64,000 nucleotides of DNA from Catajapyx aquilonaris. Its lineage: Eukaryota. A program made the translations under genes and the position numbers. The stretch is taken from the NCBI GenBank assembly GCA_000934665.2, contig KZ538406.1:1-64000 (forward strand), in the 5' to 3' direction. The notes under the pieces were generated by a model that was not told the origin of the DNA, did no database searches, and saw only the letters and a list, made by a program, of their open reading frames with translations. Positions 10,301 to 64,000 of the stretch are shown in pieces. Each line of letters begins with the position of its first letter. Positions within the stretch are counted from its first letter, which is position 1.

Positions 10301-11754
10301 TGGAGAGAAAAAAAACAAACAATTATGACTAGTCGCATCATCCTCGAAAAGGGAGACGTGGGATGCTGAGACAAGAATACAGGAGTCGGCAGTCCCATCT
10401 CGATGCCAACTTCCGGGGTTCCTCTTTTTCGGCGGACTTGACCGGCCCTCTCTGTTCTCTAGAGGGGGTATAATTATAGAGCTCCAGGTCCTCTGCTTGG
10501 GAAGCATGGTTTTATAGGGCTCGCGATATTCCCATCAGATGAGGGGGGGTTAGGCCAGATTAACATCTCTGGAAGGGCACTCGTGCATTACAGCATCGTT
10601 TTCTCCCTTATCTTAATGGCGACCTCTAAAATTGCAGTGTTCCCCAGCTGGAGTGTTGACCTCCAGGATCGGGTTTTTAAGGCCGGGTGCTGTTTATGCA
10701 TTCGTTTAGAGTGGTGTCTGGGGCCGATTGCGATTGATGGCTTGGAGACTGATGCAAATGTGTCTCGGTGGCGACTCCTAGGGCACCCTGCTGATTGAGA
10801 GGGTGGTTTAATAAAATCAGATAAACGAAGAGTTGGCAGAGAGGAGAGGCCGGAAGTACGGAGTGGGGGAGGTGAATGTCTCCTGGGTTCTGCCTTTGCC
10901 AGCCTTTCCTTCCAGCTGCGCCCCTTTCATTTCAAGATCAATATTAAAAGGTTTTCCCCCCCTCCACAACTGTATAGGACTGGGGTTGTGCCAGAGAGCC
11001 GTATGCCCTTCAATTATTGCCACGGGCTCGTTTTCTGGCACCTTGACTCTCCATGCCTTGCCAGCATCATTATTTTGGCGGAACCAGATTTAGGAAGGCT
11101 GAAATAATTATTGCAGGAGGACGTAAATAGCTTCCCACAGAGTCAATATTGTTGTTACCTTTGGAGCCGGTAAAAATGCGGGATGATTCAGTCAGGCACC
11201 AGAAGTCAGTGTGGATTACTTATTCATAATGATTTCATCAACTCCAGCTGTGAGATCTGCAAGGAGAAGGATCGCTTGAGCACAGTGTGAATTATTCATG
11301 CTTTGTGCAGCACAGTTGACACCATTACCTGTCACTTGAATTAAACCTTCATGACCCAAAATAAAAACAGCCTGCTTCTAAATTTAGTTTCGAAAAATTA
11401 TTTACAGCCTTCCTGTCATTCTCCTAGATTTGAGTTGCAGGCATTCCACGTAGTTAGCTATTTAACATTCCTATCTTGAGATGTGGTCTTGATATTACAG
11501 CATCTTACCTTCCATGCCAGCCAAGTGTCATTGATTTGCAATTGATGCTCCCACCATGAATACACAGTATTTATACAGTATATCTATATGTACTCTCCTA
11601 TCATCTGTCCTTGGAAATCCAAGTGATATGAATTAACCTGTAGCATTTATCAAGGCAATATTCTACATTTTTGGAAGAAAGACGTTAGCATGAGGATTAT
11701 TGAACTAACACATTCTACTGACAGAGCACTGATTGATATTTCTTTTCTGAACAG

Positions 11755-23700: not shown

Positions 23701-26700
23701 CTTATGGCCAGTTGTATGAATGCATATTAACATGAAAATCTCTGGGTTTGTGGGATTACATATTGTGAATACAGATACATAATTGGAGATTTTTCCTAAT
23801 TTGCTTTCTTACAACCAGGCCTTAGAGCAGCGGTTCCCAACCTGGGGGTCGCGAAACCTTTTCCGGGGGGGGTCATGCGTGGCATAAATAAAAAAATTAC
23901 CTATTTTTTTTACAAAATCGCAAATTTTGTATTGGTAATTTCATCGCGAAGGTTTTTTTTTTCAACACCTACTAACACTCAGGGAGAGGGGGNNNNNNNN
24001 NNNNNNNNNNNNNNNNNNNNNNNNNNNNNNNNNNNNNCTGCCGTAGAGGATGCCATAGACAACTAAGGGGCAGTAATGAGCCAGGGCCCTTTTGTAGCAT
24101 GGATATAATAGTGTGTCCACACTGAGTGAAGGAGGTGAAACATGAACACGTCTGTAGACTCTCCCTTAGTTTGTAACCTCCCCTCTGTGATATTCCCCCC
24201 TGCCCCTGCCCCTGCCCCTGCCCTATCCCACCCCCCACCCCCACTCAGCAGCAGACACCACAGAAAACGAAGTCCATCCCCTGTTCCATGTGCGTCCAGC
24301 ATGGTGGCTGATGGCAGTGAGATGTCAATGGGGCGCCCCAGGGACAAGGTTCGTCAGAGAGCAGCCACAACGGAAGAGCTACTCTACTCGGCAGCTGCAG
24401 GGCTCAAGAGGAGGGAAGACGAGAAGGAGGAAGCCATGTCCAGGAGCAACGGGAACACCATCAGCTGCCCAGTGACTGCCAGGCTTTTGGACAACAACAA
24501 CCTAGTGGAAGAGGACGTGGATGAAGAGTCAATGACCCAGTCCATGCCCAGCGGAGGAATGTCAATGCTTTCCAGAGCCATGTCTAGGGTTCCCAGTGCA
24601 CCTGGGTCCCTCAAGTGAGTTCCTACTATGCTATTTGTACATGCATTTTTATCAAGCTCAGCAGCATCGCATCCTTTGCTTTAAAGCATTGGTCCTCTAG
24701 AGCAGTGGCTGGCGCTCTTGTGATATCTGCAGATATAGTCTTAACTATTTTGAGAAAGGGCTGTCACGTGTTGTGACGTTTCATCAGAAGCAAAAATCAG
24801 AAGCAGGATCAGATGCAGTGCATATTCTGCGCAACTATAATTTATTGCTTTATAAAATAAATGCACAGAGAGTAACCTCGCAACTTACATATCCTTCTCA
24901 AAAGTATATGATCTCACAATATCATTCCTGTACAAAACTATGGCAATATTACCGAGGGAGAAATGTGAAGTGAATGTGGCACCACGTGTTCCCGCGTGAA
25001 TAAGCCTTTCGTAGGGAGGAAGAGGAGGCGTGTCTAGGTCGATGACACTGTCCCTTTCTCAAAATAGTTAGACTATAACGTGATTCGGGTTCAGAATGAT
25101 AGCCTCAATGACAAGCCATGTTGACCTGCAGGCTTAGCTGGACTTGGAGTCAGTGATAGCAATGCTGACTGGTCCAGTTGTGAAATTCAGTTTTTTCTTT
25201 ACCCAGTTTTGCTCAGCTCTCTAATTCAGGTTTTAGGGGATTAGGTTCTGTCAGTAGGCAGTACGGTGCCAACCACTGCAAGGTGGACGTAATATGCATT
25301 AATATGACAGCATGTTATTCACAGATTATTATTATGGGCCACGGTTTTAACTCTCAAAGGCCTGCTAGGGAAAGTCAGGGGTCATGTGACAGGACCTATT
25401 GTCAAAAATTTGTGGGAGTTTAGATAGTGACATGTAAAATACATGCACTTTTTTCCCCGCAACATTATCCATCATTTGGTAGCCTATTCGATAGATTAGA
25501 TTACAATTGGTGTTCAGATTGTGGCCTCAAGTCTTTTAACTCTCTAATCCTAATGCTCTATGTATCTCACAGACTGATCAATATTTGCATGGAAATGTTT
25601 CCTCCCAAGTTTTTGCTGCTTGCTGTGCAAGTGTGCAGCTTATGTAACATTTGAAAATACTTTCTAATGGATTTCGGCATATCAAGTAGGTATATTCACT
25701 TGAATCCAAAAATTATAGAGCACATTTGCATAAATTTTGAATTGGAAACTCCAGGGGAAGTGTGTTTTAAGAATTTGTTTAAAAAAAACCTTGTCTGCAG
25801 GAAGACCTCTAGGAAGAAGGTCTTGATATGTATTAGAAAATTTTTTAAATGGGAATATTATTGATGTTAGAATGACTGTGCATTACAGTGAACCAGTTTG
25901 TATTAATGGAGCAACTAACCCACTCATGTTCCCTTTTGTGTGAGTGGATTTGAGAGATTGAGGTAAGCTGTAGTAACAGTGGGGGTGGAAGAGACTGAAC
26001 TTGGGGGGAATGTTTGCAGGCGAAGGAAGCTGCTGTCAGGGCCTCTGGACTCGAAGCTGCTGCTAGGCTCTTCCCTCTCGCCTTCTCCTGCCTCACCTGC
26101 ACCCACCGCTACTCCCATTTTCCAGGACCATGGTAGGAGCCTACCACCAGCAGGTGCAGCAAGGACAGCAAGGGCAACACTTCCGCCCACCCGTCCCCTC
26201 CCCTCAGCAGCAGCCCTCCCCTACCCCGGGCAGAAGGCCAGGCTTCCTGGAACGACAGGAGTCCACCTCCCCAAGGCCCACCCGAAAGCTTACTAACCAG
26301 GCCACTATGCCTACTGCTGCCATATCTGCTTTGGCTGGATATGCTAACCTCTCTCCCAGAATGTAAGTCATGCTGTGCAAACTTCTGTGAATGAAAAATT
26401 ATATTTACACAAGGAAAATTATGTGTTATTACCCACTCTCTGGACTTTAACCATTTCATTTTAAAGTTCACTAATTTCTTGGGATAAGATCAAGCGATTA
26501 TGTAAATAAAACTTACGCAGATATTACTGTGGTGTTAGTATAGATGTCGAGTATGCACCTTCAAATAAAAAATTGCTCGTATTTTGACAGTACTAGACTG
26601 CAATCTTAATGAAATAAAAAGTATTTACTAGAATTTGTGTACAGGATGGTCCAATTGAAATGCCTGTATTATTAGCACTTTTGTGGCACTAAGTTTCATA

Positions 26701-29700
26701 TTTTTAAGCAGTTACTTTTGCTCAGTAACTCGTAGTGATTATCAAAAGTAGTACAGTAGTCACTTTTGATAACCACTGCATGCATGTAAATTCCAAGTAA
26801 GCAGCTTATGGCCAAAAAATCACTAACCACTACGAACATTTCAATTGGAACAGCTTGCATGTAGCAGTGATTCCCAATGCTCTTTTATGAGTGAGCTGAG
26901 CCCTAAGGTCCATCCCATCCATACCTTCCATGACATACCGTTCAGTCCAGTGGTTACTTTTATTCACATGTGAGTATTTTTGAAGCCTCGTACTTACAAA
27001 TTTTACAGTTGGCGCTGCATTTACTCAATGCCTTGCTTTCAGCTTCATCTCAGTGAGCTGAGAGCCTGAGAGCTCCACCTGCAATCATCCTGCACAGTAT
27101 TTTTTCTACTAGACTTAACTGCCTATGCATGTGCCCTTCTTCCTTTGTCACATGCTGTGTGAATAATGGAATGACTATCTTGTGAGAATAATGGAATGAT
27201 GTGGTGGATTCAGAAAGTAAGAATCCCTTGTGGGTAAAAGGTGTTTGAATAATTCTCATCAAAAAAGGGCATGGCAACTTCTTGGCGTACAATGTACACA
27301 GCCTTAAGAAACTTAATGGCTGTGTGTAGAAGTAGCTGAGAGTACCGTAATGCTAACATGTTGAAATGTTTTTGGGGATCTTTAAACACTCTCTACTCCG
27401 AATTGATTGTTACTTCTGTATGTACCAGATGTTATAATCTGATGACTGCTGTGTAAGTTGATTATGCATCATAATCGAATGTGAAGTTTAAAAAAAGGAG
27501 GGTCCAGTGTTGATGTGTGCAGTGGGAGCCAATGAACTAATGCAGCTGAATTTCCTCGCTATAACTTGCAATATCTAATGACTTCGCTTTAATTTTTCTT
27601 CCCCAACCCTTACCTTGTGTGCCTGACTTCACCTCCAATCCCTTGTTACTCATCTACTCACATCCCCCTTCCTGTAAATATCACAAAACACACAAAAACA
27701 CAACCAATCAGGGATGGCCTAGGCATGTCCTCGCCACCCGCCTCCCCAACCAGTTCAAGGCGTGCAGCATCCGGTAATCGTGACGAAGATGTTTTCTGCC
27801 GCTTGACCCTTGGCACAGCCATAAACAGGGAGAGAGGGCCATCCCAGGGAGTCCTGATGCCTTACCAAGGGAGAGTCAACCTGAAAGCCCCTCTTCATTG
27901 CCTGTACATTGCAGAGGGGCATTCAAAGGCAGTGCTGTCTGTCTGCGCCACTGAGGACTTGCTATTCAGTGGGTCACAAGGTAAGCTCTTTAAAGTATAA
28001 TTTTTGTAACAACTCATATAATTTATATTTAATATTGATTGATATGTTATCATTCATTTGGTATTTTTTTTCAGACCGAACAGTGAAAGTGTGGGACTTG
28101 AGCAGTCAGAAGGAAATAATGTCTCTGACGGGGCACCCCAACAATGTGGTAGTGGTGCGGTACTCAGAAGCCAACCGTCTGGTTTTCACTGTGTCTTCCA
28201 CCTACATCAAGGTTTGGGACCTTAGGAAACATCCTGTTTCTTGTGTCAAGACTCTCAGGTATGCATAATACTGAGAAATATGCCCCTTGTTTTTAATTGT
28301 TTAGAATATGGTTGGAGGCAATATTCAAAGCAATAAATAACAGGGATCAACCACTTGTTTGAGCCTTAGTATTGATTACACAATGCAGCATAAATCTAGT
28401 GACTAAACAATATCATTGGCCCGCAGCTCTTCGGGTCTCACCACATCCGAGTCGAGCCTGATGACGTCATCACTCCGGAAAGTTCAGGCTCCACCTGGGG
28501 AAGCCCTTTTAAATGACGTGGAGCTGAATGTGACTGGAACCACCTTGTACTCTGCTGCTGGAGACAAGGTGCGCATTTGGGATCTGCGTCGATTCATGTC
28601 CATTGGAAAGCTGACTGGTGGACACCAGGCAGCAGTCATGTGCCTGTCGGTTGGAAGGGTAGCCCCCAACCAGGACCTGGTTGTCACCGGGTCAAAAGAC
28701 CATTACGTCAAAGCTTTTGAAGTCATGGATGGGTCTGGAGGGATGGTCACTCCAAAAATGAACCTTGACCCACCACACTATGATGGCATCCAGTGTCTGT
28801 CCATGTGTGAGAACATGCTGTTCTCAGGCTCGAGAGACATGTGCATCAAGAAGTGGGACCTTGAAAAAGAGGAGCTTGTTCAGGTGTGTTTACATATGGT
28901 GTGGTTGAATAGCACTTGGTCTCTGAACAGGGAGGGTAACTTTGCAAAATATGTATGTGTTTGCCAAGGAAATATTGATTAGAATTTGGAAATTGATGTG
29001 CAGTATTTTAAAGGACCATCATAGCAGTTATGCCCAACTGGGGCAATCTAAATTTTAAATGCAAATATTAATGCAAAGTGCAACTGAGACCTACCTTATG
29101 TTGCATAAAGTCTCGTAACAACTCACGTGGCAGTGACGTGAACCAAGATTTCAGCTGAACAATGGCTTCGTTATTTACAACTAATTTTATCTTCAGTCTG
29201 TGAACAATGCCCACCGAGATTGGATCTGCGGAATGTGCATGCTGCCAGGGCGACAGCTCCTCTTCTCTGGGTGTAGGGGTGGGTTTGTCAAGCTGTGGTC
29301 CACTGAAACCTGTCAGATGATGGGGGAGCTGAGGGCACATAATGCGCCAATAAATGCCATCACTACCAATGGGAGCCTCATCTTCACTGCTGCCAGGTCA
29401 GTTTCAACCAAAACCAGCACAAACCCACCAAATGCATATGTGCACATACACAAATGGAACAAGTGTCCCATGTGTGTGTGTGTGTTAGCATTTGTTTTGT
29501 GTGTGTGTGACGGCTATCCATAAATGGTCAAACTCATCATTGCCTAATGTATTTTGGAGTTAACTTAATTTTTCGTGCTATTTTGAATGCAGTGTATTCT
29601 TGGAAGTGACCAGCAAATCTTTTGACTTCTCATGTCGGATAAATTAGTCTGAGAGTACATTGCAAGACATGATTGTTGCGAAGTTTGATTTCTATCCTAT

Positions 29701-33802: not shown

Positions 33803-36269
33803 TCAAGTGCATTCCTTTGGCCGTCTCTCCTGCAAGGTACAATGATTTTGAGCTCATCTGACCCTTCAAACACAACTGAAAAATGAGGGGCGAAATATCC
33901 TACATTACCCCAAATCTGCTGCATATAACTTCCTGGAAGTTCTTCAAAATGCCGACTTGATCTTCATGACTCTGCAATCAGAAAGTGAGGTAAGTGCCTG
34001 GCCTGGATTTGCATGAAATGTCAGCTCGATTGAAAACTAGTGCTTTTTCGTTTGTGCTCGTTGCCTGCTTAGTTTGCATACCTGGTCAATGGTGATGGTT
34101 GGAATGAATCCTGCTTTTGGCCTGAGTGCATGTGTGGCGTCTCCATGCAACTTCAGCAGCTGTTCACCCTCCTCGCTCAGAATACATCTGCGGATAGGAT
34201 CCCACGACACTCCCAGCTGTTCGGCACACTGGAGGAGCATCATGGAGGTGAGAAAATTCAGAGTTATGGCGGTACTGTAGAGCATTATTTAACTGTTTTA
34301 TCCCAGGATGACTGCTTCATTAGCACATTGTGACAACTGACATGAAATTGTTAGATAGAACAGCAGGTAACCCACATTTCTGATGCTACTAAATTGTGTT
34401 CCTGGTGCTAATGAGCCAGGAAGTAATATGACTGTGGTCTGGTTGTATCACTCAACAAGGAAATTTCTGTTATTGTTGGATACTGTGAATATTGACGCAT
34501 TTGCCTTCATGCAACAAGCCCTTCGCCCAGCATTAAGAAAAAAGGTCTCGCATTTGTAAGGTCCAAAATGAACCAAAATAATGACAATACTCTCCCTTAG
34601 AAAAGAGAGACAAGGGGGTCCCACTACAATAATATGGCAATCCCATGTTTCTCTCACCTTGCTGCCTGCTGTTTGAGGCTCAAAGTTGTCCAGTATCATG
34701 CAATGGACATAAGCAAGGCGTGTAGTTGCACTGGATATATGGGCAATGGCACAGGCGTGGACTCTATTGGCCTCGCACTCTAGCGGACCATGTTGGCACG
34801 TAAACACAGGACGACCATCTTGCATCTTGGTCTGAAAGGGTGCGGAGCATGAAGCGTCAGAGGCTGTGTTACCACAACAATAAACAGCAACATACAAAAG
34901 CTTTTCCATATGGAATGAGGTTGAGATTCAAATAGGAGGACAATTTCTGGTAGACTGGTTGCAGGTGCCGGTTGATGAAGTGGCGGCTGTCTGGACAGAG
35001 CGCCTCGTAATACACGCTCACGTCCAGGATGCGCGGGGTCAGGGATGATGACTCTCCAGATGCCTTGGAGAAGGACACTTGTGTTAAGATCATGGTATTA
35101 ATCACAACTTATGTAGATATGACTTGTGGTCTTTTCATACATGCCTCATCTGGTACATATGATGCTGCATAAGATTCACAATTATTTTATTATGCAAAAA
35201 CAATCCACACTGTCATGTTGTAGTTTCAGGAATAGTTTCAAGAGAACAGTTATTAAACATAGCAATTGATTAGTGCCTGGCACGCAATCACACTAAATTC
35301 TCAACATTGCATAAATGCGGGCTTGAATCTCAACTGCAGTAGAATTACGAAAAGATCAATGAGCCTAAGTATGTGCATGTGGTCAACAATATCTGCAGAT
35401 TAACAACTGAATGCATAGAGAGCTCATTGTCCCCAGCTTGTTTGTGGCACTCAGCAAATTCCAAGCGTTAGGCCATGAAATTTCTTTGCCACATCATGCA
35501 ACCTCATGTCGTAAAAGAGCCATTAGTACAGAGCCAAGTTACTCAATCATAGTGACAATTATGACAAGAATGTGACGCCTGGATCCATCTGCCAAAGAGC
35601 AATGATACGCTGCAATGGATGGTCTGGTATCCTGCTTCCCCAGCAGTATTTTGCCCCTTTTTAAATTAATGGCTGGTTTCACCAAGCAGGTTATATTATA
35701 AACCCAAGTTTCTCTTTGGAAAATCCTTACTTTTGATTGTTGTCAGCGAGGGTTGCTATGTCAATTCTGGTTATAACCGAGGTTCTAAATTTTAACCAGG
35801 TTGGTGAAACCCGCTCGTTTTTCAGGGGCATCTATAAGGCACGTGGTGAAACAGATACAATTGAGTGGTGCGATGTAATGACGAGCGACGTGCGTGCAAT
35901 CACCTGCAGGTCAAGCGCATCCTCTGCGTCCCTCCCACCCCACCTCCCTGCCTTAATGTCACCGTCCCCTGCGGCACCCTCCCTGCTGAGGTGGTGCTGC
36001 CTGACCCCCGGCCCCCTGGGAAGGGAGGACCCCCCGTCTCCATCGGAGCTGCGCAGAGGGCAAAGCTGGAAGAGCTGCCAGGCCAGCAGGAGTCCCGCAG
36101 CCACGGCCAGCACCTGCAGGCCCAGGAGCAGCCAGGAGACGAAGCTCCACTCTGGAAGGATCCCTCCATGCTTGTTATTGGAGCCAGCAGTGCCTATTCC
36201 CTGCTGGTGCGGATGGTGCTGGTGGAAGCAGTGGCGGAAGAAGCCCAGGATGGTGCTCCCCACACGCAT
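33803..36269 (-). CDS. IFI30: GILT/IFI30-like lysosomal thiol reductase, paralogue 1, with a long N-terminal signal-anchor extension (314 aa)
   Basis: Exons (-): 36269-35904, 35063-34896, 34831-34658, 34228-34082, 33971-33909, 33829-33803, all phase 0. Motifs VYYEALCPDS, IPYGKA, and the GILT signature FTCQHGPLECEANRVHAC. Exon 1 is assigned by its donor CAG|gtgatt and hydrophobic segment and is less certain than the rest. Confidence 0.9.
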
Positions 36270-36729
36270 CTCGAGGGGGGTCAAGGGCCGGCTAGCCCGA
36301 CCTGCCTACCCCACTGCCGCCGAGGACCCACGCCCTGGTATTGCGTCGTACCACGTCTTGTCTGTCTGCTGCACTCGGGAAGTTGGGATGCTGATCAGTC
36401 AGCCCCTGCAGCAGCAGCAGGGCTGGGAGGGGACTGAGGCTGCGGGGATGTTCGCACGGGGCGAGGGAGAGACGCTGCCTGCTAACGGGGAGGGAACTTC
36501 GGGTTGCGCGCGGGACACTTTCAATTCGACAAGCCCAGGGGTTATTCCAGCCGGTCACGAACTACGTGGGGACATTGGCACATTGCCTTCTCTTAATAAT
36601 GGCAGTGGCTCATTCGGACCATTTTTTCTATAATATTGCTCACTCACGCTCAGCTTCATAAACAAACAAACAAACAAACAAACAATGAACGAATAAACAC
36701 AAATACATACACAGGCCTGCATAAAAACA

Positions 36730-50729: not shown

Positions 50730-52283
50730 ATGAAGCTACTGCAGTTTGTGCTCCTACTTTTCTCCCTCGCCGAAGGTAATTTTACTGTGCCGCATTACGG
50801 CCTATTTTAGAGTAATTACCCCCACACTGGGGGGAGGGGGGCAGACAGTTTTTCCAAGTAAAGCTGTTACGCAACTGTTGACTGAAGAGTGCAATTTTGC
50901 ATTATTGTGCTACATTCCTGAGAATTGCGGTGGATCAGCAATGAACCTGGGTTGAATTGCTGGCATGCATGTGTAATTACGTATTTTAAATTATAAGTTA
51001 TATCAAGTTGAAGAGAACGCAAAATTTCGTTTCTCCTAATTGCTCGAAGCATTAGGGTAGGTTTCACGATAATGGACAGAAGTCTTATTTCTGAAGGCCA
51101 ACCTTGCAAGAATATTACAGTAACCTGAAATCACGTAATAAAGATGCCCGACTTTAGCTTGTGCACATGTTCAAGGTCCATGCATACTCATCAGTAAACT
51201 ACAACATGAAAGTAAAGTAATATATTGCATAACAGACTGTAATAATGAATCCTGATGACAATAGGGACCAGGGCCTGTATTACTGAAATAATGTTTGTGA
51301 CGAGTAAAAATAATTTTCCAGGTATCAGAGGCGACCTCCCATGCATAGCACGTTACCTGGGAGAAGAAAGCTTCGTGTGTGTTTGCAATGCCACTTACTG
51401 CGATGATCTGGAAGAACCTTCCAAAGTGCCAAAGGGACAGCTGCTCGTCTACTCTTCCGATCAACACAGATTCCGTTACTACAAAGAGGTTTTCAGTTTC
51501 AACGAATCTCAGCTTGTCCCTCATATGCCATCAGGTAACTTTGCATATAATGTGCTATGCCACGTACAGGATGTTTCAGCTTATTTGCTCCATTAATGGT
51601 ACCAAAGCTCTGAAGCTATAATCTATACTTTTTATTATAATTCAATGTTGATCTCTCAATGGGGCAAAATTAAATTAAATAAATAAATAATTAATTAATT
51701 AATTCAATGACCTAATGCAACAAGGGACGAAGTACAAGGTAGACTGTCTAAGTAATTTCGACAAAAATGTGATTCTGATCGTTCCGCTTTTCAGTATTGC
51801 ATGAAAGCGCAAGGGCTGGAGATTGGCATAGAAGAGAGAGGTTAAGATGGCAATAGTGTGCAGAGGGGGTGTTCACAATATACAGTACTGCATTAGCTCG
51901 AATTAGGCCTATGAATTACTTAAGTACAGAGCATAACAGTGCTTTTACTTAACCTAATAAAATATTGAACATCATTTCTTAGTTCCACAGAAGCTCTGTG
52001 CATCAGTGACTGCTAATAGAAAGAAACGGTCATTCTGAAATATTGAAACGTAACAAGACAGTTCAGATGGATCACCCTCTTTAGCCCCAAGTCTGCACTG
52101 CAGCTGTCTAATAAATATTTCTTTTCCGAAGATGGCGCAGGAGCACTTCTCAAAATCGACCCAACCGTTACTTTTCAATCTCTGATTGGTTTTGGAGGAG
52201 CTTTTACTGATGCCACTGGAATTAACCTGATGGGTCTAAGCGAAGATGCCCGCAACAATGTCCTCAAGTAAACATTATTATTT

Positions 52284-52366
<83 letters not shown>

Positions 52367-54491
52367 TTTTATTTTTATTTAGGTCCTACTTTTCGGACAA
52401 CGGTGCTGCATACACTTTGTGCCGTGTGCCGATTGGTGGGACAGACTTCTCGGACAGACCTTACACATATCGAGATGCCATCGGTTTAGATCAACATCCT
52501 CCTTTTACTTTGCAAAAGGACGATCACAGATACAAGGTAAAAAAGAAAGAAATTTGAGGATGTCACAAACGGAATTAACTACTAATTTAAAAAGTCACGT
52601 TGCTCTAGATTCCGCTTATCCAACAAGCGATAGAATTGAGGGGCCAAAAACCTTTGAAGTTGTTTGCAAGTCCGTGGAGCGCGCCACCAGCTCTGAAGAC
52701 AAACTTTAATCATTTCGGGATGGGCTTCTTAAAATATGAATATTATCAAGAGTACGCCAATTATTTTATCGAGTAAGTATCGCGTGTATGAAATCGAGGC
52801 CACAAATATTATATTGCATTTTGTCCAGCTTCCTCTCAGCATATCAGCAACATGGAATAGACTTCTGGGCTGTGACGACCCAAAACGAGCCAACTAAAGG
52901 CTACATACCGTTCTTTCCGTTCAACTGCATGGGCTGGACACCTGAGCAGATGGCCAAGTTTGTGGCCAAAAACTTAGGCCCTACCTTGGCCAGATCTAAC
53001 TTTAGTTACGTCAAGATCATTGTACTGGACGACGACCGGATGATGATTCCTCTGTGGGTTGCACCCGTAAGTCATTTACCTTCACCTTTCATTATGCTGT
53101 TAATTAATAATATTGAACGTTACATGTCGCTTGTAGTTGTTCAGCTATCCTGGGGTGAAGGACTACGTGTACGGTGTTGGTCTGCATTGGTACTTCAACT
53201 TCATGACCCCAGCATACGTGCTAGATTACGCCAAATTAAATCTGATGGCTCCCAACCAAGTCCTGCTAGCAACGGAAGCCTGTGAAGGTCAATGCAACCA
53301 GCAAATATTATTAGAATTATTACAGTTAAAATAAGCACTTCTATACACTGTACTTTGCAGTAGTTATTTTAAATTGTTATCAAAAGCTTAGGTTCGATGC
53401 GAAGACAAAAGCAATGACGTCCAATGTGTGACACCAACTTTGTGTTAAAGGAAACATAACCTAGTTCCAAATTTCAGGATTTGTGAGCTTCCACAAGGTG
53501 TTGCTGGGTTCCTGGAGAAGAGGCGAAAACTACGCTCAGGATATTATTGAGGTAAAATGAGTTCACCTGGATATGGCAGGTGCCCGTTTTAGTCTGAGAT
53601 TTTTTCCAGCCTAAGTTGGTTACTGTGAGCAATTTTGTTTATTTTTATCGTCACATAACAGTTCCCTCTCCCCTTGAGTAGTGGGGGACAACCATGAAAC
53701 ATATATGTTGCAAGATTCATGTCCATATCTACATTTAAAAAAAAATACAAAGAAGACAAACGTTTTGAAACATTCTTAACATGTACTCATACATGGGGCA
53801 AATCTTTTAAGCAGTTACTTTGGAACAGTTTTTTAAAATAGATTTCTATAATTTGGAACTGCATTGCAATTCCAAGCTTGGACAGATAATTCGATTTCCC
53901 TATTGGCAGAAAATATACCGTTAATAGTATGCTACCTGTTCCAACTTCCAATGTACACGGGTGAAAAAAATCTGTCAGATAATACGAACACCTACCTTGG
54001 AAAGTGCAGTGGTGGGCACATTTACTGTTGGTTTTTGTGGCCGTCAGAACTTGAATCACTGGGTGTCGAGCTGGGTGGACTGGAACATGGCCCTGAACGC
54101 AACTGGAGGACCCAACTGGGCGGGTCTAGGGGCAGACTCGCCCATCATCGTCAACTCAACATCAGACGAGTTCTACCGTCAGCCTCTCTTCTACACCATG
54201 GCCCACGTGTCCAAGTTCTTCCTACCTGGATCTGTCCGAATCGGGACCACATTTGCCTTCGAAGGAGGGCCTTTGGAAGGAGTGGCCGTTCGCAGGCCGG
54301 ACAAGGCCATTGCCATATTCCTTCTCAATAAGTAAGAGACTTTGCCCTTTCACGCCTATACAGGATTGACATGCTCGCCTTTTCCCCTCAGGAACGATCA
54401 GGATGTACAAGTTGTGCTGCAGGATCCAGAAAGAGGAGTGGCCAAGTTTACTAGTTACAAGAGATCGATTCAGAGTGTACTTTATTGGTAG
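50730..54491 (+). CDS. GBA1: Lysosomal acid glucosylceramidase-like protein (GH30)
   Basis: Exons 50730-50775, 51322-51534, 52132-52267, 52383-52536, 52609-52772, 52829-53066, 53137-53287, 53478-53551, 54048-54331, 54392-54491. Signal peptide; VCVCNATYCD, GFGGAFTDA, RVPIGGTDFS, ASPWS, acid/base TTQNEP, LHWY, nucleophile ATEAC, WVDWNMAL. Confidence 0.95.
52285..52365. repeat. (TCA)27 microsatellite inside GBA intron 3
   Basis: 81 nt of perfect TCA repeat within intron 52268-52382. Confidence 0.98.
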
Positions 54492-55127
54492 GCTTAATTT
54501 TGAGTGCAAAGACAGATATTTTACCGTTTAGTCACCTGAGATTTGGTTTTTACTCAGGAATTAGTATTAGACTACACGAATTGGTTCCATGCCAGAATGA
54601 ACCATTAATATTTTAATGCCCTTTATTTTGTCTAACTTGGGCGGCTAAGTGCATTTCAATTTCTGTTCAAAACTGACATACAGACACATAGGCCTGCCGG
54701 CATGGTTCCATAATCTAGTCTGCTTATTTGCTATTTGTGTAATTAAAAAAAAAAAACTGACCCACACGAAGTAAATTTTTATACTGTAGTACCGTAAGTT
54801 ATGCATATTATTGACACGAGATTTAAAACACTACTCCATGATTAATGAGAAAATATAAACTAAATGTTATGGTTATTTATATACCGTCAATCAGATCCTA
54901 TAGTACACTCTGGCGGTATATGTTAAAGTTATTTTTTAGCCTGACGGAAGTATTCTCAATGTTATCAACATTTTGTAGATTACATCTCAAAGCACAAAGT
55001 TTTAGTCGTTACATATATGGGTCAGAAATCGTGCACTCAACTGGAATAATATTGTATTTATTTATTTTTGAATAAAGCCATATTTTATTTATCAAAGTGT
55101 AACAACTTCTGGTTATCAGGCGATGTT

Positions 55128-55620
55128 TCAATTCTGTTTCTTGCGAAATAGGTCGATAATTCGACGAACTGACTCGTGCTCTGCCACATCTTTCAGATGA
55201 GTGGCCGCCTGTTCAATTTTCTTGGCGTATTCACTTACGCGATCCAGAAAGTCTCTCAGGCCTCGTTTCTCTGACGGTAAAGAAAGAAATGTCAGGATTT
55301 TATCAGATAAAAACACATTAAAAATATTATAAAAGTCACCTCGCAGTGTATGAGCGCTCCTTTTATCCAAAGGAATGCCTCTGAGATCATTATCCAGCTT
55401 TTCGAGATCTGCGAGTGTATCTAGGTTATTGTCAGCAGACCTCTTCTCGAGTGACAGTGCTACAATAACAATGCAACAATATTACATAACATGTACGTAT
55501 ATTAATACCTTAAGTCTTAAAAAGACAGAACTGAAATCCGTACTCACCCGCTCCATTTCCCACATGTATCATCACCAGAGCAAACACAACCACAGCAATC
55601 CATACGTTTAATTTCGCCAT
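55128..55620 (-). CDS. Orphan secreted prepropeptide (111 aa): signal peptide, acidic propeptide, three KR sites, 44-aa amphipathic mature peptide
   Basis: Exons (-): 55620-55548 (G|gtgagt), 55459-55340 (ttgtag|..G|gtgact), 55270-55128 (cgtcag|). Both introns phase 1, total 336 nt. MAKLNVWIAVVVFALVMIHVGNGA-ALSLEKR-SADNNLDTLADLEKLDNDLRGIPLDKR-SAHTLREKR-GLRDFLDRVSEYAKKIEQAATHLKDVAEHESVRRIIDLFRKKQN*. TATA box upstream and AATAAA downstream (55089-55084, -). Confidence 0.85.
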
Positions 55621-55658
55621 GTTTGAAGTATGGATCTCAGGCAAAGAGAAACATGCAG

Positions 55659-55695
55659 CAGTGAGGTTGCTCCAAACCCTCTGTTCCTATTTATA
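55659..55695 (-). promoter_or_regulatory. TATA + Inr-like core promoter of the prepropeptide gene
   Basis: TATAAATA at 55695-55688 (-), TCACTG about 30 nt downstream (55664-55659), and the ATG in a CAAAC ATG G context at 55620. Confidence 0.65.
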
Positions 55696-57253
55696 CCTTT
55701 CCCTCGTGGAAAAACATTTCCGACATCCGGAGGAAATTGAGGTTTTTCGCAAAACGCGGTATAGGTCTATTGATAAAGAAAAGTGGCAGTCGGTGGAAAA
55801 TAATAATCTGGAACCGAGTTGATATTGGCTTGGGTTTGGCTCCGGGTGCTTGCGGTTTTCCTCGTTGTGGGTGCCGACAAGTTTATATCAGATGTCTTAG
55901 TATACCGGTCAGTAAACCTCAAGATATGATTTTACGAAAGAATGAATGTCCTGCAAAGTAGTAATTTCTCTCAGTTTATTCCCGTTTTCCCTGCAAAGAA
56001 TTAAACTCAAGGGGATGAACTCACTCTTGGTAATTGTTATTAATGATTTTTTAGCGGAAGTGTTCAAACGTCCGGAATTGTGTACATGTGGCCGATTTGC
56101 TCTGGAGACCAATTTATCCGTTGAAGCAACAATCATGGCCGCATTTTACTTGTCGTGGATTGTTGCTTCTTTTTAATCTTGTTGCTGGACTTTAGCAAAC
56201 TCAGATAGTGCAGCCTTCCCTCACCTTGGACTCGGAATTCGGATAGTGCAGCACAAACACTGACAAGAACTGCATGCATTAGTATTGTAAAATGATGCCA
56301 TTTGTATAGGCCACAACAGGGTGAGTCAAATTGAAACGTGTGGATGTGTACTTGTACCATGATAGGCTGTAGGCCTACTGAATAAAATGACGACACTGAA
56401 AACAATCTCTGACCTTCAGGTACGGACGTACGGTTATTGAGTTTGTGATCCACCACTGTGCAACATGTTAGATTACGTGCAACGACAGAACATGTCCTGT
56501 CTTCAAACACGATACACATCACCTTTGGACTGCCGGTGGCTGAGCAAGATGAAAATTAATATACATTACAGTAGTTATTAGAGCAGGTTGCTGTAACCAC
56601 TGCGAAACCTGAATCATTGGACGGTGAGTGCATAATGGTAAACGCGACATTCGTTCTCTGAAATAACTCCTCGAAACCGCGATCTTTTGCAGGTCAATCA
56701 TTCGTAAGTCTCGACTTTGTGACGCAGGCTCTGGGACGCTGCAGCATTGGGCAGAAGAGTATACAGCACCATATTGGCGTAATGCCATAATCATTGTTTA
56801 GACTAGAGGTGAGTTGAAATTGCACTTTGTAGTCAAATGCCATTGCATTGTACTATATAGGCCTACTGCGAAAAAATACTGCTCTCTTTCCGTCACTTGC
56901 TACATTGCCATGTCATTGTGCACACGATATTCATTCCTGCGACATGACCACTTATTATGATCATTCTAGAAGAGCACAATGGGCATGCGGTTGGAATTCA
57001 AAAGCAACAAATGGTTACAATACTATACTGCTGTTTTTCCTGCACAATACTTTTCTGTTCCCATGGAATAGGCGTCAATCAATCAGCTTAATTACAAATT
57101 TACAATCAAGTGTCATTTGCAATTATTATACCTACACATAATACGCGTATCGTCTCTGATCTGATAATTCTTGATTTATGCAGCACAGCATTGCAGATGT
57201 ATCAAGTAATAACACGATTTGCTTTCGTCCACAATATACGAAGGAAAACTTTA

Positions 57254-60200
57254 TTATGCGACTTCATCTGTAGGTTTTTCTTTCTTTCGCCTACAGCACT
57301 GGGAGCAAAATATATTCTTCAGTATCTTGTTCTTTCCTAAATCTCGTGCATCTGTTCTCTGGCCCTTTGCAAACACCAAAAATATCTGCTCCAAGGTGGT
57401 CTCACCCACCGAATAGTCCTCCACCAGGGGCCATCTCTCCTTTATACCCTCCAGTTGCCGAAACAGCGTGGACCAAGGAATCTTCGGATCCGTCACGTGA
57501 TAATGTAGAAATCCCTAAAAAGATACCGTATGTTTCAAACTAATAATTACGGAGATTCTAAGCACTGAAGTTCATTGCTAGAGATTTCATCAGTGGTGGA
57601 ATTTCACCTGGTTTTTATCCTTGAGGACGCACGGTGCGAGTTTGGTGAGTATTTCTGTTTCGAGAACCTCTTCGTCCTTCAGGGCATGAGGCAGCTCCAC
57701 CAGCATCGTCGGCCTCAGTTTGACCAGCACCGTGAAGCCCTGCCCAAACTTGTTCTTCAGCTGCTGGGGACTTCCCAAGCACTGGAACTGCCCGTTGACC
57801 ATGATGGCCACTCTCTGGCACAGCACTTCGCATTCCTCCATGCTGAAATTAAGGGACTGCTGGATCACACACCCCGATGGTTGATGGCAGAATATATTTC
57901 TTCTACCAATAATAATAATCACCTGTGCGACGTGAGCACAACGGCCTGCCCCAGCATCTGGATGTTAGCCAAGGCTTTCCAAAGCCTTCTCCTGGCCCTT
58001 GGATCCATCCCGCTGGTTGGTTCGTCCAGGAGAACCAGAGGGGGGTCGCCAACTAGCGCCATCGCCGTGCTGAGCTTCCTCTTGGTGCCTGAGCTGTACT
58101 GGCCGCACTGCTGGTCACAACTATCCTCGAGGCCTGCAACGTGCACAAGAAATGGCTATTTATCACCTGCTGCACCAATTGCATCCCCTGTTGTCAGCTA
58201 ACTTACCCAGGTATGCCAGCCATTTCTCAGCCTCGCCTTTCACTAAAGACCAGGGGACTCCTCTGAGGCTCGCAAACAGCTGCAACATCTCCTTCCCGGT
58301 CAGGGTGTCCACCAGCCCGTCGTACTGAGGACAATAACCGATGCTCCGGAGGTACTGCAGGTGCAGTTAAGACAAGGGACGGTTACAATGATCAGATGTT
58401 ATTTATCTGATGCAACTGACCTCTGAAGTTTGTCCCTTGAGGGAATAGCCCTGGACAACTGCGTTTCCCCTGGTGGGACGCATGTCCCCAGTCAGCATCC
58501 TGAACGTGGTGGTCTTCCCCGCTCCGTTGACGCCTAGCAACCCGAAGCACTCGCACAGGTCCACCCTGAACGACAGCCCCTGAACGGCCACCAGGGACCC
58601 AAAGGTCTTGGCCACGTCCTGGACCAGCAGAGCGTGCTTCTCTTCTGCTTCCTCTGGTTCTGACGACTTTCGGTGAAGGCTTTTCTTGGCCACCAGCTGC
58701 CTCTCCAGCCTGACCTCCTCCTCCAGCTCCGACTCTCCCATATCCACCGTGGTCCCCCTGTCCTTCAGCAGCATCTTCAGGGTGCGGCTGCCCTCCAGCA
58801 GCAGGACCAGCAGCATGTAGGCCGTGCCCAGGAGGAACATGTACACGATGCACTGCCCCGGAGCGGGTAGCTGTCGGTCGCTGGGCGTCTTCGTCTGTTC
58901 CTTTCCGCAAGTCTGTTCACCTCCGCCGGATCCTTCCACCGTCAATTTGCCCTGCAGCACTTCCCAATCCAGGTACTTGATGACCTCGTGGCAAGCGTGG
59001 CGATTCAGGCGGCAAAAGTTTTCTGGGGCACAGTAAGAGTTGCCAGTTAAGCTTTTACTCGCAGATAAGTCAAACGGTCTGTTCCATTTTTTTAAAGGTC
59101 CAAGTGACAAAATTATACTCATTCACAAAACATAATTATTGGAGATTTCCTCCTGACGATTTGATGCAACCAGCACTTTACGATAACATTATAGTGGCAT
59201 TGCAGGAACAGTAAAATTATAGCAAATACGTTTCGAAACATAACGAATCATTGACTATTATACAAGTGAGTGTATACGCATTAGCAACCACATACCGCAG
59301 CAGGAGTATATGGAGTTGGCAAACGCAATACTTCTGGGGCTCTGGCTGAAATCCTGATCGCACGTGCTGTTTAGGAATTTTTCGGTGTAGTATTTGCACT
59401 TGTTGTTCTTGGTGGCGATCTGGGAAAACCGAAGAAGTCCGTAGGAGACCAGGTAGGCAGGAAAGAGCTGGAAAATCCATCGCAGGATGTTTGCCACCAG
59501 GGCGTCGTTCTTGTCCTCCTCCAGGGTGAACACCACGTAGCACAGGACGGTACCTGGTTCCAGGTGGAGGTGACGACACGTCACACTGTTTACGTATGCA
59601 AGGTACCACTACACACCCTTATACTACAGGATTTTCTCTAGAGAGGCAGACAAACTGAAGAGTTTTGTAATGATTCTAGTAACAGAGCGACTTTCTCGCA
59701 TTTCTGTGATCATACCAATACAGTAACATACGTATTATTTTGAATATCGCAGACTACAGTCATTGAAAAGCTATATGGGCTTCTTTACGCAGTTTTACAG
59801 CTAGATCTCCCTATACACTCTGCACACCCGCACTCACCGCTGACAACATGCAACAAGCTAACCAGTCCCAGGGCTCCAGATACGCTCTTACTGAAGAAGC
59901 TGACCAGGTAGGAGAAAGCCAGGCTGCACCAGCTAAAGGTGAGGAGCAAGTAGAATATGCTACCTGTGCGATATAAAGGTACCACCTTGAAATGCCTATC
60001 GCAATGGGAAATTCATCGCAGCCTCCACCAATCCACGACTGGAAACAGTAGACTAAGTATTGTATACTGACCAAGGCCTTCGAAGTGGACGTATGTCCCG
60101 ATGTCGTCCATGAAGTAGATGACCAGGACGACCAGCACGTGGGTGAGCAGCACGAAGAGGGTGTCCCAGAAGAGCATCACCATCCAGTAGGTGACGGGCG

Positions 60201-63200
60201 AGGTCCCGGTCATGAGCTGCAGCTGCTTGGCCGAGGAGATCTTCTCTTGGGTCGGGGTGATGAGGAATCCCGTGGCCAGGAGGGACAGGCCGATGGTCAT
60301 GAAGATGGAGAACATGACGCTGATGTTGAGGAGTTTGCTGGCCCCCGAGGAGATCGGGAGGAACCCTTGATGACCCACCACCATCGGGAGGGGATAGTTC
60401 GCCGTGGTGATGCTGTATTCTGAGTCCTTTCCTCCGGTGTAATGTCTCAGCATCGCGTTGTGGACCAGGTTCAGCGAGAGAGGCGCCCCGTGGAAGGCGA
60501 AGGCGGAGAACATGGCTACCACCTCATGGCCGCTCTTGAAGTCGGCCGCGACCACGAAGGCCGCCTTGTAGGCCATCTGGTCCTTTCTGGCCTGGTCCAG
60601 CAGCGATTGGGTTAGGTTCTGGTTCGTGTCCACCTGAAAGGAACGGTTGTCAACTCCCCAACTATCAACTTAATTTTTGCCCAAGACCTATTCAACTCAG
60701 TACCTGAGTGAATATGGAGTCACCCGGGATGAAACTCTGGTAGACCTGGACTATCCCCGTCCCGTTGGGCCATCCTTGAGGATCCAGGTGGACCATCGTG
60801 CTGGTGTCGCTGTAGTCCTCCAGACTGAATACTCGGTATGGCGGGGGCTCTGGCTGGGTGTACATTTCCACCGAGTGGTTACTCAGCACGATGCAGGACA
60901 CGGTCAGGAGCACCATGATGAAGGCCTGACCGATGTACATGGGCCAACGACGGAACATGTTCAGGAAGCTCTTTATCATCAGGGCTCTCAGACGCTGGAA
61001 GCCCAATAAGACCCCGCGGAGCTTCTCGCTCTGGGCCACACCTTGCAGGACACAAAGAAGGACTATAGTTATGACTGACAGGTTGCTTCCGGACAATGCA
61101 GTTCATGTGGTACTGCTTGCTGGGACAAACCTTCCCTGGATATCTTTTCATCTATACAGCAATTATTCAATCTTCAACTGTGGACTTTGGACAGTGGCTT
61201 TACTTACTTTTTCTTTTTCGGAGTGAGACAACATTTCCCTCCTCTAGCGTCTGCGGCTCCTCCGTATCCTCTTCAACTACTCTGCACAAAATGAGAAAAT
61301 TTATGACAGAGGGTTACAGTGCTGTCACTATATACACGATTGTCTGGCTGATACAATGGAACCAAGTGCACCTGTTTCCTTCCGCTGACATTTTCATTTA
61401 CAAAAAAAAGAGTACGGACTTATGGCCTTAATAACTTACTTCATGAAGACGTCATCCATGGTGGTGAGCGACACCCCGAAGCTGGCTATGCCCAACTTGC
61501 TTCGCTCCCGGTCCATGACCTCGAAGAGCTGGAGGAACCTGGAGCTCTGGTTCACGGGCAGGCGGTAGCCCAATTCTTTGTTGGAACTGGAGGGCTCTCT
61601 CTTTACGCCAGGGAACTGGGACTGAACCAGTCTAGTCACCTGATCCTCATCGCCAGAGCTGGACATGGTCAGCTTCAAGTGGTAGCCCATCTCTGCAGGA
61701 GTGACCACGAAGGTGTTGCAAAACTACGATATAGGCCCAAACTACATGACAGAGAATCACTTTATGTAAAGATGTCGTTCGGCCTGTGCCACCTTGTTAT
61801 CGAGATTGGCTTCAAACGAAAGATATGAAGTATCCTGGAAGATACACGTCACGTCTCGCTACCTTGCAGTTATTTTTTTAATTTTAATTTTTCTTTACAT
61901 TATAATAACAAGGCTGCGGACGGTCACCTAAACGGCACTCCTATACAATTCTCCTGGGTCAAGGGGTCATCTTATAGGCATTTGTATGCATCATTACGAA
62001 ACATTCTGTATCATACGTTGCTGTATTTCAGAACACGTATATATACGTGTTCTGAAATACAGCAACGGCATTTCATTTGATTACCATAAGCCTTTTTGAG
62101 GAAGTGCGGACTTCCGCAGCACTTGATGCTTCCGTGAACCATGATTGCAATGCGGTCGCCAAGAATGTCGGCTTCCTCCATTATTTGGGTGGTGATCAGG
62201 GTCGTGTACTGCCCTCGGAGTTCCTGCGTAAGGAAGAGCTCCCAAAGAGTTGAGCAATCAGCAAAAAAGAAGATGAATGCACCTTACCAAAAGGAGGTCC
62301 CACACTGCTCGACGCGCTTCAGGATCCATTCCAGACGTGGGCTCATCAAGGATAAGCACCTGGAACATTAACACACATTACCAGATTGTTCTCTACGAGT
62401 GTGTACAGAGACTTATCCTGGAAGTCAGTCTTCCGCGCATTGCAAGAGAGGTGCATGGGTTGCCCTCGAGGGATATGATAAAATGGAGGAAATACTATTT
62501 TTTTTCGGAGAGTTATGACTCAAGATTGACATTATGTGCAGCATACCCGTAGCAACATTAAAAGTCATCACCTGTGGCTCTCCTAAGAGAGAGATCCCTA
62601 GACACAGCTTCCTCTTTTGTCCCCCGGAGAGGGTTGAAGCCACCGCGTTCAACTTTTCCCGAAAGTTCAGTTTCTCGGCCAGATCCTCCGCTTGCCTGCT
62701 GGCGTCAGCCTTTTTCATGTCCTTCAGCTGCATACCCCGCAAGATCACAATTTATTACTAAGCACACCAATCTCAGACCATCTGCATGCTCAATTTAATG
62801 CTCATCCCATACCATCCCGAAGAAGACAAAGTGCTCCTTGACCGTGAGTCCCTCTATCAGCATGTTGTGCTGCGGGCAGAACCCGACCAGCCTCTGTGCC
62901 TTGGCGAGGTGCCTCTTGATGTTGACCCCTCCCACGTGGGCCCGACCTTTGTCCGGGGAGTAGAGGCCAACCAGCATGTTGAGGAGGGTGCTCTTCCCAG
63001 CCCCAGTGTCTCCCAACAGCACCGTGATCTGCCCCTGGAAAGCGGTCAGGGTGGCGTCGGACACCGCCATCACCGTCCGTCCCCCGAACAAGGAGAATGT
63101 CTTCTGCATGCCCGACACCACTATTCCGGCAGGAAGACCCTCCGGTTCCGCCTCGAAGCTCGGAGTTGCAGATGGCAAAAGCTCTTCCTCCGGACCCGGA

Positions 63201-64000
63201 TCTGGGATGGTCTTTCTTATCCGTTTGCGGCAATCGCATGGCTAATAAGGAGGGGATTTAAAAACTGTAACATACTATAGTAGTACGCCGACGAAATTTC
63301 CACGCTTTGACATTTCGCAGAAGGTCGACGGCTCACTTGATTTGAAGGAGCCAAAGCAACTATGGCTATCTGGCTATGACACAAGACACAAGGGTGGGAC
63401 AGATGGAGAGAAAAACGAATAAGAGCAGCTCTTGATAAGAGACAATAAAGAAGAGTCTCCCAAAGATCTGTCCAACTTGGGTGGCCATATACTAGTATAG
63501 ACGAAGCTATACCGCCGGCATAGCTCTTCGGGGTCATGGATCTTACCCGAAAGATGAAGTACCACGGCTTGGTCACGCCATATCCGCCGGGCATCACGTT
63601 GGAGACGTACACGGCAAGGGCGAGGTATATGACAGTGTCCACCGTCAGCATGATGTACACGTCCGCCACGGTAAAGTTGTCGTCCATTTCTCCTAGGGGC
63701 GTCAATAGCTTTCCAGGAGTGGTGAGCTTCCCAAACGTTAGTCTCTGCCCTGGGCGACAATGAAAAAAGAAACAAAAAACACACGCAGTCATACTCATGA
63801 AGGTGCATAGGCTTATCAAATACGAGGATCCTCAGACTACTTTCGCTTCCTACAGTTTTCCTCGTATATGGCGAATACCACTAGCCCTTCCGTCAGCGCT
63901 GCGTGCGGACTAAGGCAAGTCAGCATTTTGACAAGGTACGAGAGGGTCGGGTATTTGGGCAGAAGGGTCAGCGCTGGAGCCAGGTAGCTGATGATCCAGA
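57254..64000 (-). CDS. ABC transporter subfamily A (ABCA3-like full transporter), 5' part outside the window
   Basis: Exons (-): 64000-63854, 63749-63547, 63241-62813, 62727-62572, 62359-62288, 62223-62085, 61692-61440, 61281-61208, 61041-60704, 60633-60072, 59963-59838, 59553-59296, 59022-58421, 58354-58207, 58133-57923, 57842-57608, 57514-57254. NBD1: [34 protein letters not shown]2: [40 protein letters not shown] hallmarks [26 protein letters not shown]. Confidence 0.95.
62016..62067. repeat. Perfect 52-bp palindrome in an ABCA intron
   Basis: cgttgctgtatttcagaacacgtata|tatacgtgttctgaaatacagcaacg, no spacer and no mismatch. Confidence 0.95.

Follow-up and report, generated by a model that had tools for sequence, protein, structure and literature searches.

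The ligands of class-B G protein-coupled receptors (GPCRs), that is, CRF/urocortin/DH44, PTH, GHRH, and calcitonin/DH31, are mostly Cys-free, mixed-charge amphipathic helices of 30–44 residues, which are cut from their precursors at dibasic or furin-type sites, bind the receptor ectodomain via one hydrophobic face, and are in most cases amidated. The dermaseptin-type precursors of frogs begin with a signal of 22 amino acids (aa) and a Lys-Arg pair (KR), after which come an acidic spacer, another KR, and finally a mature peptide that is cationic, 23–34 aa long, and provided with a C-terminal amidation extension (-GGQ or -GEQ) (PMC6151546). Spider venom precursors are cut at the processing quadruplet motif (PQM), which has Arg at position -1 and a Glu anywhere from -2 to -4, an Asp variant being reported in 4% of motifs (PMC8290080). 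Two further secreted helical peptides are worth keeping in mind, namely LL-37, in which 35% of the residues are hydrophobic and the Boman index is 2.99, and dermcidin, which is anionic (PMC4035769). Here, we describe a small three-exon gene for a predicted peptide precursor of this general layout, found in the first 64,000 nucleotides (nt) of contig KZ538406.1 of Catajapyx aquilonaris (assembly GCA_000934665.2), a stretch that we will call the window.

Structural annotation

The gene lies on the minus strand, and its boundaries were located by script (Table 1). Translation starts at the ATG at 55620 (context AAACATGG), and the joined coding sequence (CDS) of 336 nt, that is, 111 codons and the stop, specifies a prepropeptide of 111 residues. 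A preliminary description of this DNA had proposed a complete gene with two phase-1 GT-AG introns, which is borne out by the reading frame, by the exon boundaries, and by a spliced RNA contig. It had also remarked that the track of open reading frames (ORFs) captures the gene only in part, and the track does show a single 117-aa frame in which exon 1 is missed. This stop-to-stop frame (55128–55481) results from intron 2, which keeps the frame and contains no stop codon.

The transcript evidence comes from one public run (X1), whose library type is not on record and which contains 49% of the sampled words of 55060–55690. When the stretch 54700–56100 was compared with this run, the gene was represented by a single contig of 370 nt, with no differing letters, no gaps, and a depth of 24.8, a figure that is a poor measure of expression. 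The three blocks of the contig (55124–55270, 55340–55459, and 55548–55650) are separated by jumps of exactly 69 nt (from 55270 to 55340) and 88 nt (from 55459 to 55548), the ends of which read CT..AC on the plus strand and therefore GT..AG on the minus strand. The contig spans the whole CDS, ends 30 nt 5′ of the ATG and 4 nt 3′ of the stop codon, and crosses both of the splice junctions (55547–55460 and 55339–55271) that had been set as the test of the gene. Spliced RNA of the three-exon gene exists, and this is a genuine expressed animal gene. Were the library one of DNA and the contig derived from a processed retrocopy, which is far-fetched, the spliced RNA would still have to have existed at some time.

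The TATA, initiator-like (Inr-like), and AATAAA motifs that had been pointed out around the gene are present by motif scan, and the contig, covering 55124–55650, reaches none of them. Retention of intron 2 was considered as a source of an alternative product and finds no support in the sole contig, from which the intron has been spliced out. Were it to occur, retention would lengthen the protein by 23 residues immediately ahead of the last cleavage site and would not truncate it.

Organization of the precursor

By inspection, the N-terminus of the precursor consists of a short charged n-region, a hydrophobic core of 13 residues, and a c-region of small residues (GNGAA); the -3/-1 rule is satisfied at G21/G23, the small residues at -3/-1 lying around positions 21–25. 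The first 23–25 residues would accordingly be read as a cleavable signal peptide, by which the precursor would enter the secretory pathway. The three KR sites and the Cys-free C-terminal 44-mer were found as they had been described: LEKR-S, LDKR-S, and REKR-G occupy residues 27–31, 54–58, and 63–67, with the KR pairs at 30–31, 57–58, and 66–67, and the P1′ residues (S, S, and G) are all small. Only REKR matches the furin consensus (R-X-K/R-R); in the other two, P4 is Leu and the site is simply dibasic. There is no Cys in the entire precursor. The acidic spacer has 25 residues, a calculated mass of 2739.36 Da, and an isoelectric point (pI) of ~4, and a heptapeptide lies between the LDKR and REKR sites. 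AlphaFold2 (AF2) modeled the exon-2 part with low confidence (predicted local distance difference test, pLDDT, 64.8), as would be expected of the acidic pro-region, which probably serves as a flexible spacer.

Proprotein convertases of the subtilisin-like type would be expected to cleave behind each of the three Lys-Arg pairs, REKR-G being the most secure site, and this cleavage would free the C-terminal 44-mer as a 5.2-kDa helix-break-helix peptide. Further basic pairs (KK, RR, and RKK) occur inside the 44-mer, all of them in predicted helix and two of them followed by Ile. Basic pairs in a helix or before Ile are poor convertase sites by the usual rules of thumb, and those of the 44-mer would be expected to be spared.

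A researcher might also read this region as part of a small secreted helical protein of a non-classical type (lipid- or surface-binding, reproductive or seminal, matrix, chaperone-like, or an inhibitor), in which the furin site alone, or no KR pair, is used. The lack of a P4 Arg at two of the three sites agrees with such a protein, as do the heptad pattern and the likeness to designed coiled coils described below, which suit protein–protein or self-association; moreover, mixed-charge class-A-like amphipathic helices are typical of exchangeable apolipoproteins. We nevertheless regard it as unlikely, because three KR pairs with a small P1′ residue in a region modeled as flexible resemble processing sites, and because Pfam, PDB, and Foldseek searches matched no apolipoprotein or other helical family.

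Properties of the 44-residue peptide

The 44-mer ends in ...RKKQN before the stop and has a calculated monoisotopic mass of 5221.82 Da. When KR plus the 44-mer was modeled as a 46-mer by single-sequence AF2, the pLDDT was 91.3 and the model comprised a helix at residues 2–29, a two-residue break, and a second helix at 32–45. The preliminary description had claimed an i+3/i+4 periodicity of hydrophobic residues along the 44-mer, and comparison with shuffled sequences upholds this for residues 1–27/29, where the hydrophobic moment is 0.55–0.58 versus 0.18–0.20 ± 0.09–0.10 and is reached by 0.015–0.05% of 20,000 shuffles. The claim is only borderline for the second helix (residues 30–44; moment ~0.66–0.69, reached by 4.7–6.4% of shuffles) and for the complete 44-mer, where the moment at 100 degrees is 0.31 and 5.8% of 10,000 shuffles attain it, in the latter case because the break at residues 28–29 shifts the phase. 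With the heptad register that fits best, all a/d positions as far as residue 27 carry hydrophobic residues.

A direct count confirmed 10 K/R and 8 D/E, which corresponds to a net charge of +1.9 and a pI of 9.3. Opposite-charge pairs at i/i+3 and i/i+4 number 13, whereas shuffled sequences have 6.9 ± 2.2 and 0.6% of them reach this value. The grand average of hydropathy (GRAVY) is -0.84, the mean Eisenberg hydrophobicity -0.30, and the share of hydrophobic residues 36%; the Boman index is ~3.2. A complex prediction with two copies of the 44-mer gave a score of 0.01 and a mark of 0.32, which is no evidence either way on self-association.

Taken together, these values predict a stable, water-soluble helix-break-helix with a narrow hydrophobic stripe of the heptad type and many intrahelical salt bridges. 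Such a peptide could dock its stripe on a receptor or other partner in the way that long helical peptide hormones and coiled-coil ligands do. Our first, and tentative, choice is therefore an extracellular protein-binding ligand, that is, a hormone-, neuropeptide-, or cytokine-like signal, and it is ranked first because of the narrow a/d stripe, the negative mean hydrophobicity, the near-neutral charge, and the excess of salt bridges. Detergent-like disruption of membranes would seem less likely than a ligand role. The same values speak against a cationic lytic peptide of the classical kind and differ from those of cationic peptides that acquire their fold only at membranes. The ranking of the four functional readings considered in this article is a soft one, with a membrane-active effector second, a small secreted helical protein of another use third, and a young transcript lacking function last.

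The same processing could also yield, as the preliminary description had suggested, a membrane-active effector of host defense or venom, which would lie on membranes as a helix-hinge-helix or form helix bundles in the manner of LL-37 and dermcidin and would be made in hemocytes, epithelia, or a gland. Dermaseptin-type precursors have the same order of parts, from the signal through the acidic spacer and KR to the amphipathic helix at the C-terminus, and so do the simple spider linear-peptide precursors, with LEKR and REKR conforming to the PQM rule. Helix 1 has a high hydrophobic moment, the peptide is basic by its pI, and helical antimicrobial peptides (AMPs) of mixed charge exist, the examples being LL-37 and dermcidin, the latter with a net charge of -2 (PMC4035769). 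Set against this are the low net charge with 8 of the 44 residues acidic, the narrow stripe and negative mean hydrophobicity, the many intrahelical salt bridges, which predict a helix already stable in water, and the absence of an amidation signal. No sequence kin were found among the AMP or venom families in Pfam or PDB, and a crude scan of ~600 nt upstream, which is weak evidence, located no kappa-B-like or GATA motif. The scan upstream of the TATA box, too crude to carry weight, showed no CRE motif either. An effector of this kind is, in our estimation, somewhat unlikely, though it deserves to be kept in view.

Functional annotation

The preliminary description had recognized no family for this precursor, and none was found in any resource consulted (Pfam, PDB, Foldseek, the ESM Atlas, two very large protein libraries, and full-text literature). 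Pfam returned no family at E ≤ 10 for any of four pieces, which included exon 1 (24 aa), exon 2 (39 aa), and the 117-aa ORF. In PDB sequences, phmmer at the same threshold found no more than designed coiled coils and chance helical segments (Vav, RsgI2, and a MARVEL-domain protein); the designed antiparallel coiled coils match residues 3–30 of the 44-mer (E 9e-4), and we take this match to reflect the heptad pattern, not kinship. There were no Foldseek matches between the AF2 model and the PDB at E ≤ 10 and no usable match to the 44-mer in the ESM Atlas. In a word-indexed search of 5.8 billion proteins, the 117-aa ORF had 14 word-sharing candidates, none of them at E ≤ 1, and none of 509 pattern matches among JGI metagenome contigs was confirmed. 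Three phmmer matches at E ≤ 0.001 among 1.84 billion representatives were rejected as spurious; their lengths are 2027, 1194, and 1426 aa, and all are long repeat-rich chains whose match is confined to the spacer and due to recurring low-complexity words. Eight peptide words of the precursor were absent from the full-text literature, supplements and subscription journals lying outside that search. Within the window, tblastn with the precursor found only the gene itself, and Rfam had no matches.

How far these results reach depends on the host. The motor exon of a KIF21-type kinesin gene in the same window is 70–77% identical to its best library proteins, which come about equally from arthropods, hemichordates, vertebrates, and molluscs, and for a glucosylceramidase exon the best identity is 63%. 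From the KIF21 values and their even spread, the host, apparently a bilaterian animal, is without close relatives in the protein library. "No known family" is, therefore, to be read as none detectable with the searches used, and the orphan status of the peptide as provisional, since the libraries lack close relatives of the host as well. HMMER filters also discard very weak matches, so that a remote kinship to hormone families may have gone unnoticed.

The absence of a homologue from every protein and metagenome search, together with the lack of a paralogue in the window, would fit a transcript of recent origin confined to this lineage, whose open frame has no selected function, or a gene with hardly any protein output. 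We consider this improbable. The gene is well formed, with a TATA box, a good ATG context, and two canonical phase-1 introns that are cleanly removed; the spliced contig has the depth given above; and the product combines a signal sequence and ordered processing sites with a confidently helical segment of highly non-random amphipathicity.

Several points weigh against the ligand role that we prefer. A neuropeptide of 44 residues that is neither amidated nor Cys-containing would be unusual, and this peptide has no N-terminal pyroGlu, no Cys, and no Gly before the stop or before its C-terminal basic residues that could serve as an amidation signal; here, the caveats already attached to the gene, namely the missing amidation signal and the low net charge, hold. 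Hormones of the CRF/DH44, PTH, glucagon, and calcitonin types were unmatched in the Pfam and PDB sequence searches. Helix-hinge-helix peptides of similar length are found among host-defense and venom peptides, and the chemistry of the 44-mer seems compatible with membrane activity. Cleavage of the signal peptide and by convertases was judged by rule of thumb. Lastly, the protein libraries include the animal proteins of nr and UniRef and contain neither this protein nor close relatives of the host, and a query of 44–87 residues searched against billions of sequences becomes significant only at high identity.

It is possible, if somewhat doubtful, that the 44-mer is the founding member of an undescribed and lineage-conserved family of bioactive helix-break-helix peptides in a thinly sampled group of animals, being either a hormone with its own receptor or an oligomerizing defense peptide of low charge that salt bridges stabilize. 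Such a family would escape the databases of today. Should the 44-mer prove bioactive, it would represent a new sequence family of secreted signaling or defense peptides in a lineage that is thinly covered by protein libraries. Since it is short, Cys-free, and by prediction unmodified, it is easy to synthesize, and the value of the present work lies in a verified gene model and a readily synthesized candidate peptide. For now, the gene counts among the many orphans that encode small secreted proteins, a class that is common in animal genomes. As this gene illustrates, short peptide genes with several exons can slip past ORF-based tracks.

Genomic neighborhood

The peptide gene stands alone, flanked on one side by a gene for a GH30 glucosylceramidase and on the other by one for an ABCA-type transporter (Table 1). 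The former is convergent with the peptide gene and ends ~0.8 kb from its 3′ end. A second X1 contig (181 nt, depth 2.5) overlaps 54700–54744 and may be the 3′ untranslated region of the glucosylceramidase transcript. Upstream, ~1.5 kb separate the TATA box from the 3′ end of the ABCA-type gene, the last coding exon of which ends near 57254. The ABCA-type exons are GC-rich enough for their other frames to contain long ORFs as well.

Elsewhere in the window, the minus-strand ORF at 34448–34927 contains a GILT domain (gamma-interferon-inducible lysosomal thiol reductase; E 1e-12). Two GC-rich stretches (4932–5551 and 35737–36633) carry long overlapping ORFs on both strands with no Pfam match; they could represent either promoter regions resembling CpG islands or exons of low complexity. 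An assembly gap of 45 N interrupts the KIF21-type gene at 23993–24037, and single N occur at 9327, 13833, and 44509.

Table 1. Positions of the elements of the peptide gene and of the larger genes in the window
Feature	Position	Strand	Basis and remarks
TATAAA box	55690..55695	-	Motif scan; ~33 nt 5′ of the Inr-like site; contig begins at 55650
Inr-like TCACT, putative transcription start A at 55662	55660..55664	-	Motif scan; inferred only
Exon 1, coding part, 73 nt (ATG, 24 codons, and 1 base; signal-like)	55548..55620	-	Covered by contig
Intron 1, 88 nt, GT..AG, phase 1	55460..55547	-	Precisely removed in X1 contig
Exon 2, 120 nt (pro-region with LEKR-S, 25-residue acidic spacer, LDKR-S, and SAHTLR segment)	55340..55459	-	Covered by contig
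Intron 2, 69 nt, GT..AG, phase 1, in frame, stop-free	55271..55339	-	Precisely removed in X1 contig
Exon 3, 143 nt with stop (completion of REKR-G, 44-mer, TGA)	55128..55270	-	Covered by contig to 55124
Coding part for the C-terminal 44-residue peptide	55131..55262	-	Exon 3
TGA stop	55128..55130	-	Exon 3
Candidate poly(A) signals AATAAA (55089–55084, 55066–55061, 55062–55057)	55057..55089	-	Motif scan; contig ends at 55124
GH30 glucosylceramidase (Glyco_hydro_30 TIM-barrel and beta-sandwich exons)	~51249–54335	+	Pfam; best library identity 55–63%
ABCA-type transporter (ABC_tran and ABC2_membrane_3 exons), running off the window end	57254–64000	-	Pfam
KIF21-type kinesin (motor exons, Pfam Kinesin, E 6e-49; long coiled-coil stalk; C-terminal WD40)	11627–29523	+	

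Comparison with described systems

The preliminary description had likened the gene to the precursors of frog dermaseptins and arachnid linear peptides. In the layout of the precursor this likeness stands (PMC6151546, PMC8290080); a sequence relationship, by contrast, was not found in Pfam. The features shared with the frog precursors are a signal of ~22–24 aa, an early KR, an acidic spacer, and a KR before a Cys-free amphipathic C-terminal helix. On the other hand, the peptide here has 44 aa versus the 23–34 given for dermaseptins, is far less cationic, lacks the Gly-containing extension, and is preceded by a third KR site (PMC6151546). The KIF21 motor exon of the host is 71–75% identical to vertebrate proteins, so that the host is not near any vertebrate. 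A Pfam family exists for the conserved frog signal and acidic propiece, whereas exon 1, exon 2, and the ORF matched none, and the signal and spacer of this precursor have no sequence similarity to those of dermaseptins.

In the case of the simple spider precursors, the common elements are a signal, an anionic propeptide with internal motifs, a final motif of the X-E-X-R type, one linear peptide, and the stop. As defined there, the PQM is satisfied by LEKR and REKR, and LDKR is the rarer Asp variant, which is weak evidence for so short a motif (PMC8290080). The sites of the present precursor are Lys-Arg dibasic and equally well explained by ordinary convertases, and inverted PQM (iPQM) linkers are absent from it. 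Spider cytolytic peptides, being strongly cationic, also differ from the 44-mer, with its 8 acidic residues and net charge of +1.9, and no homologue was present in the libraries containing nr and UniRef. No arachnid protein is closer than 70–75% in the KIF21 motor exon.

Dermcidin (DCD-1L) and LL-37 are chains present in the PDB, and neither was matched at E ≤ 10; their proteases and gene structures differ from those described here. The cathelin domain of cathelicidins, with its four Cys, has no counterpart in this precursor, which is devoid of Cys and of any Pfam domain. Self-association is a feature known for dermcidin and LL-37 themselves. The resemblance is that of a C-terminal Cys-free helix of ~37–48 residues, both acidic and basic, released from a secreted precursor, and the hydrophobic content is 35–38% in LL-37 and dermcidin versus 36% in the 44-mer (PMC4035769).

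Compared with the long helical hormones, the 44-mer has no CRF, Parathyroid, Hormone_2, or calcitonin-type Pfam match and no match to a solved hormone chain. Its predicted helix begins at residue 1, leaving no flexible N-terminal activation segment, and is broken at residues 28–29; and, unlike most of these hormones, it has no C-terminal Gly as an amidation signal. What it would share with them is the predicted Cys-free, mixed-charge amphipathic helix, derived from a precursor with dibasic and furin-type sites. Judged on its sequence, the precursor is without the sequence-defined features of the dermaseptin superfamily, the spider linear peptides (beyond the PQM-like motif), the CRF/PTH/glucagon/calcitonin hormones, the cathelicidins, and dermcidin. 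The gene is best described as one for a prepropeptide that convertases would process, a familiar kind of product, and it is possibly the first of a lineage-restricted family.

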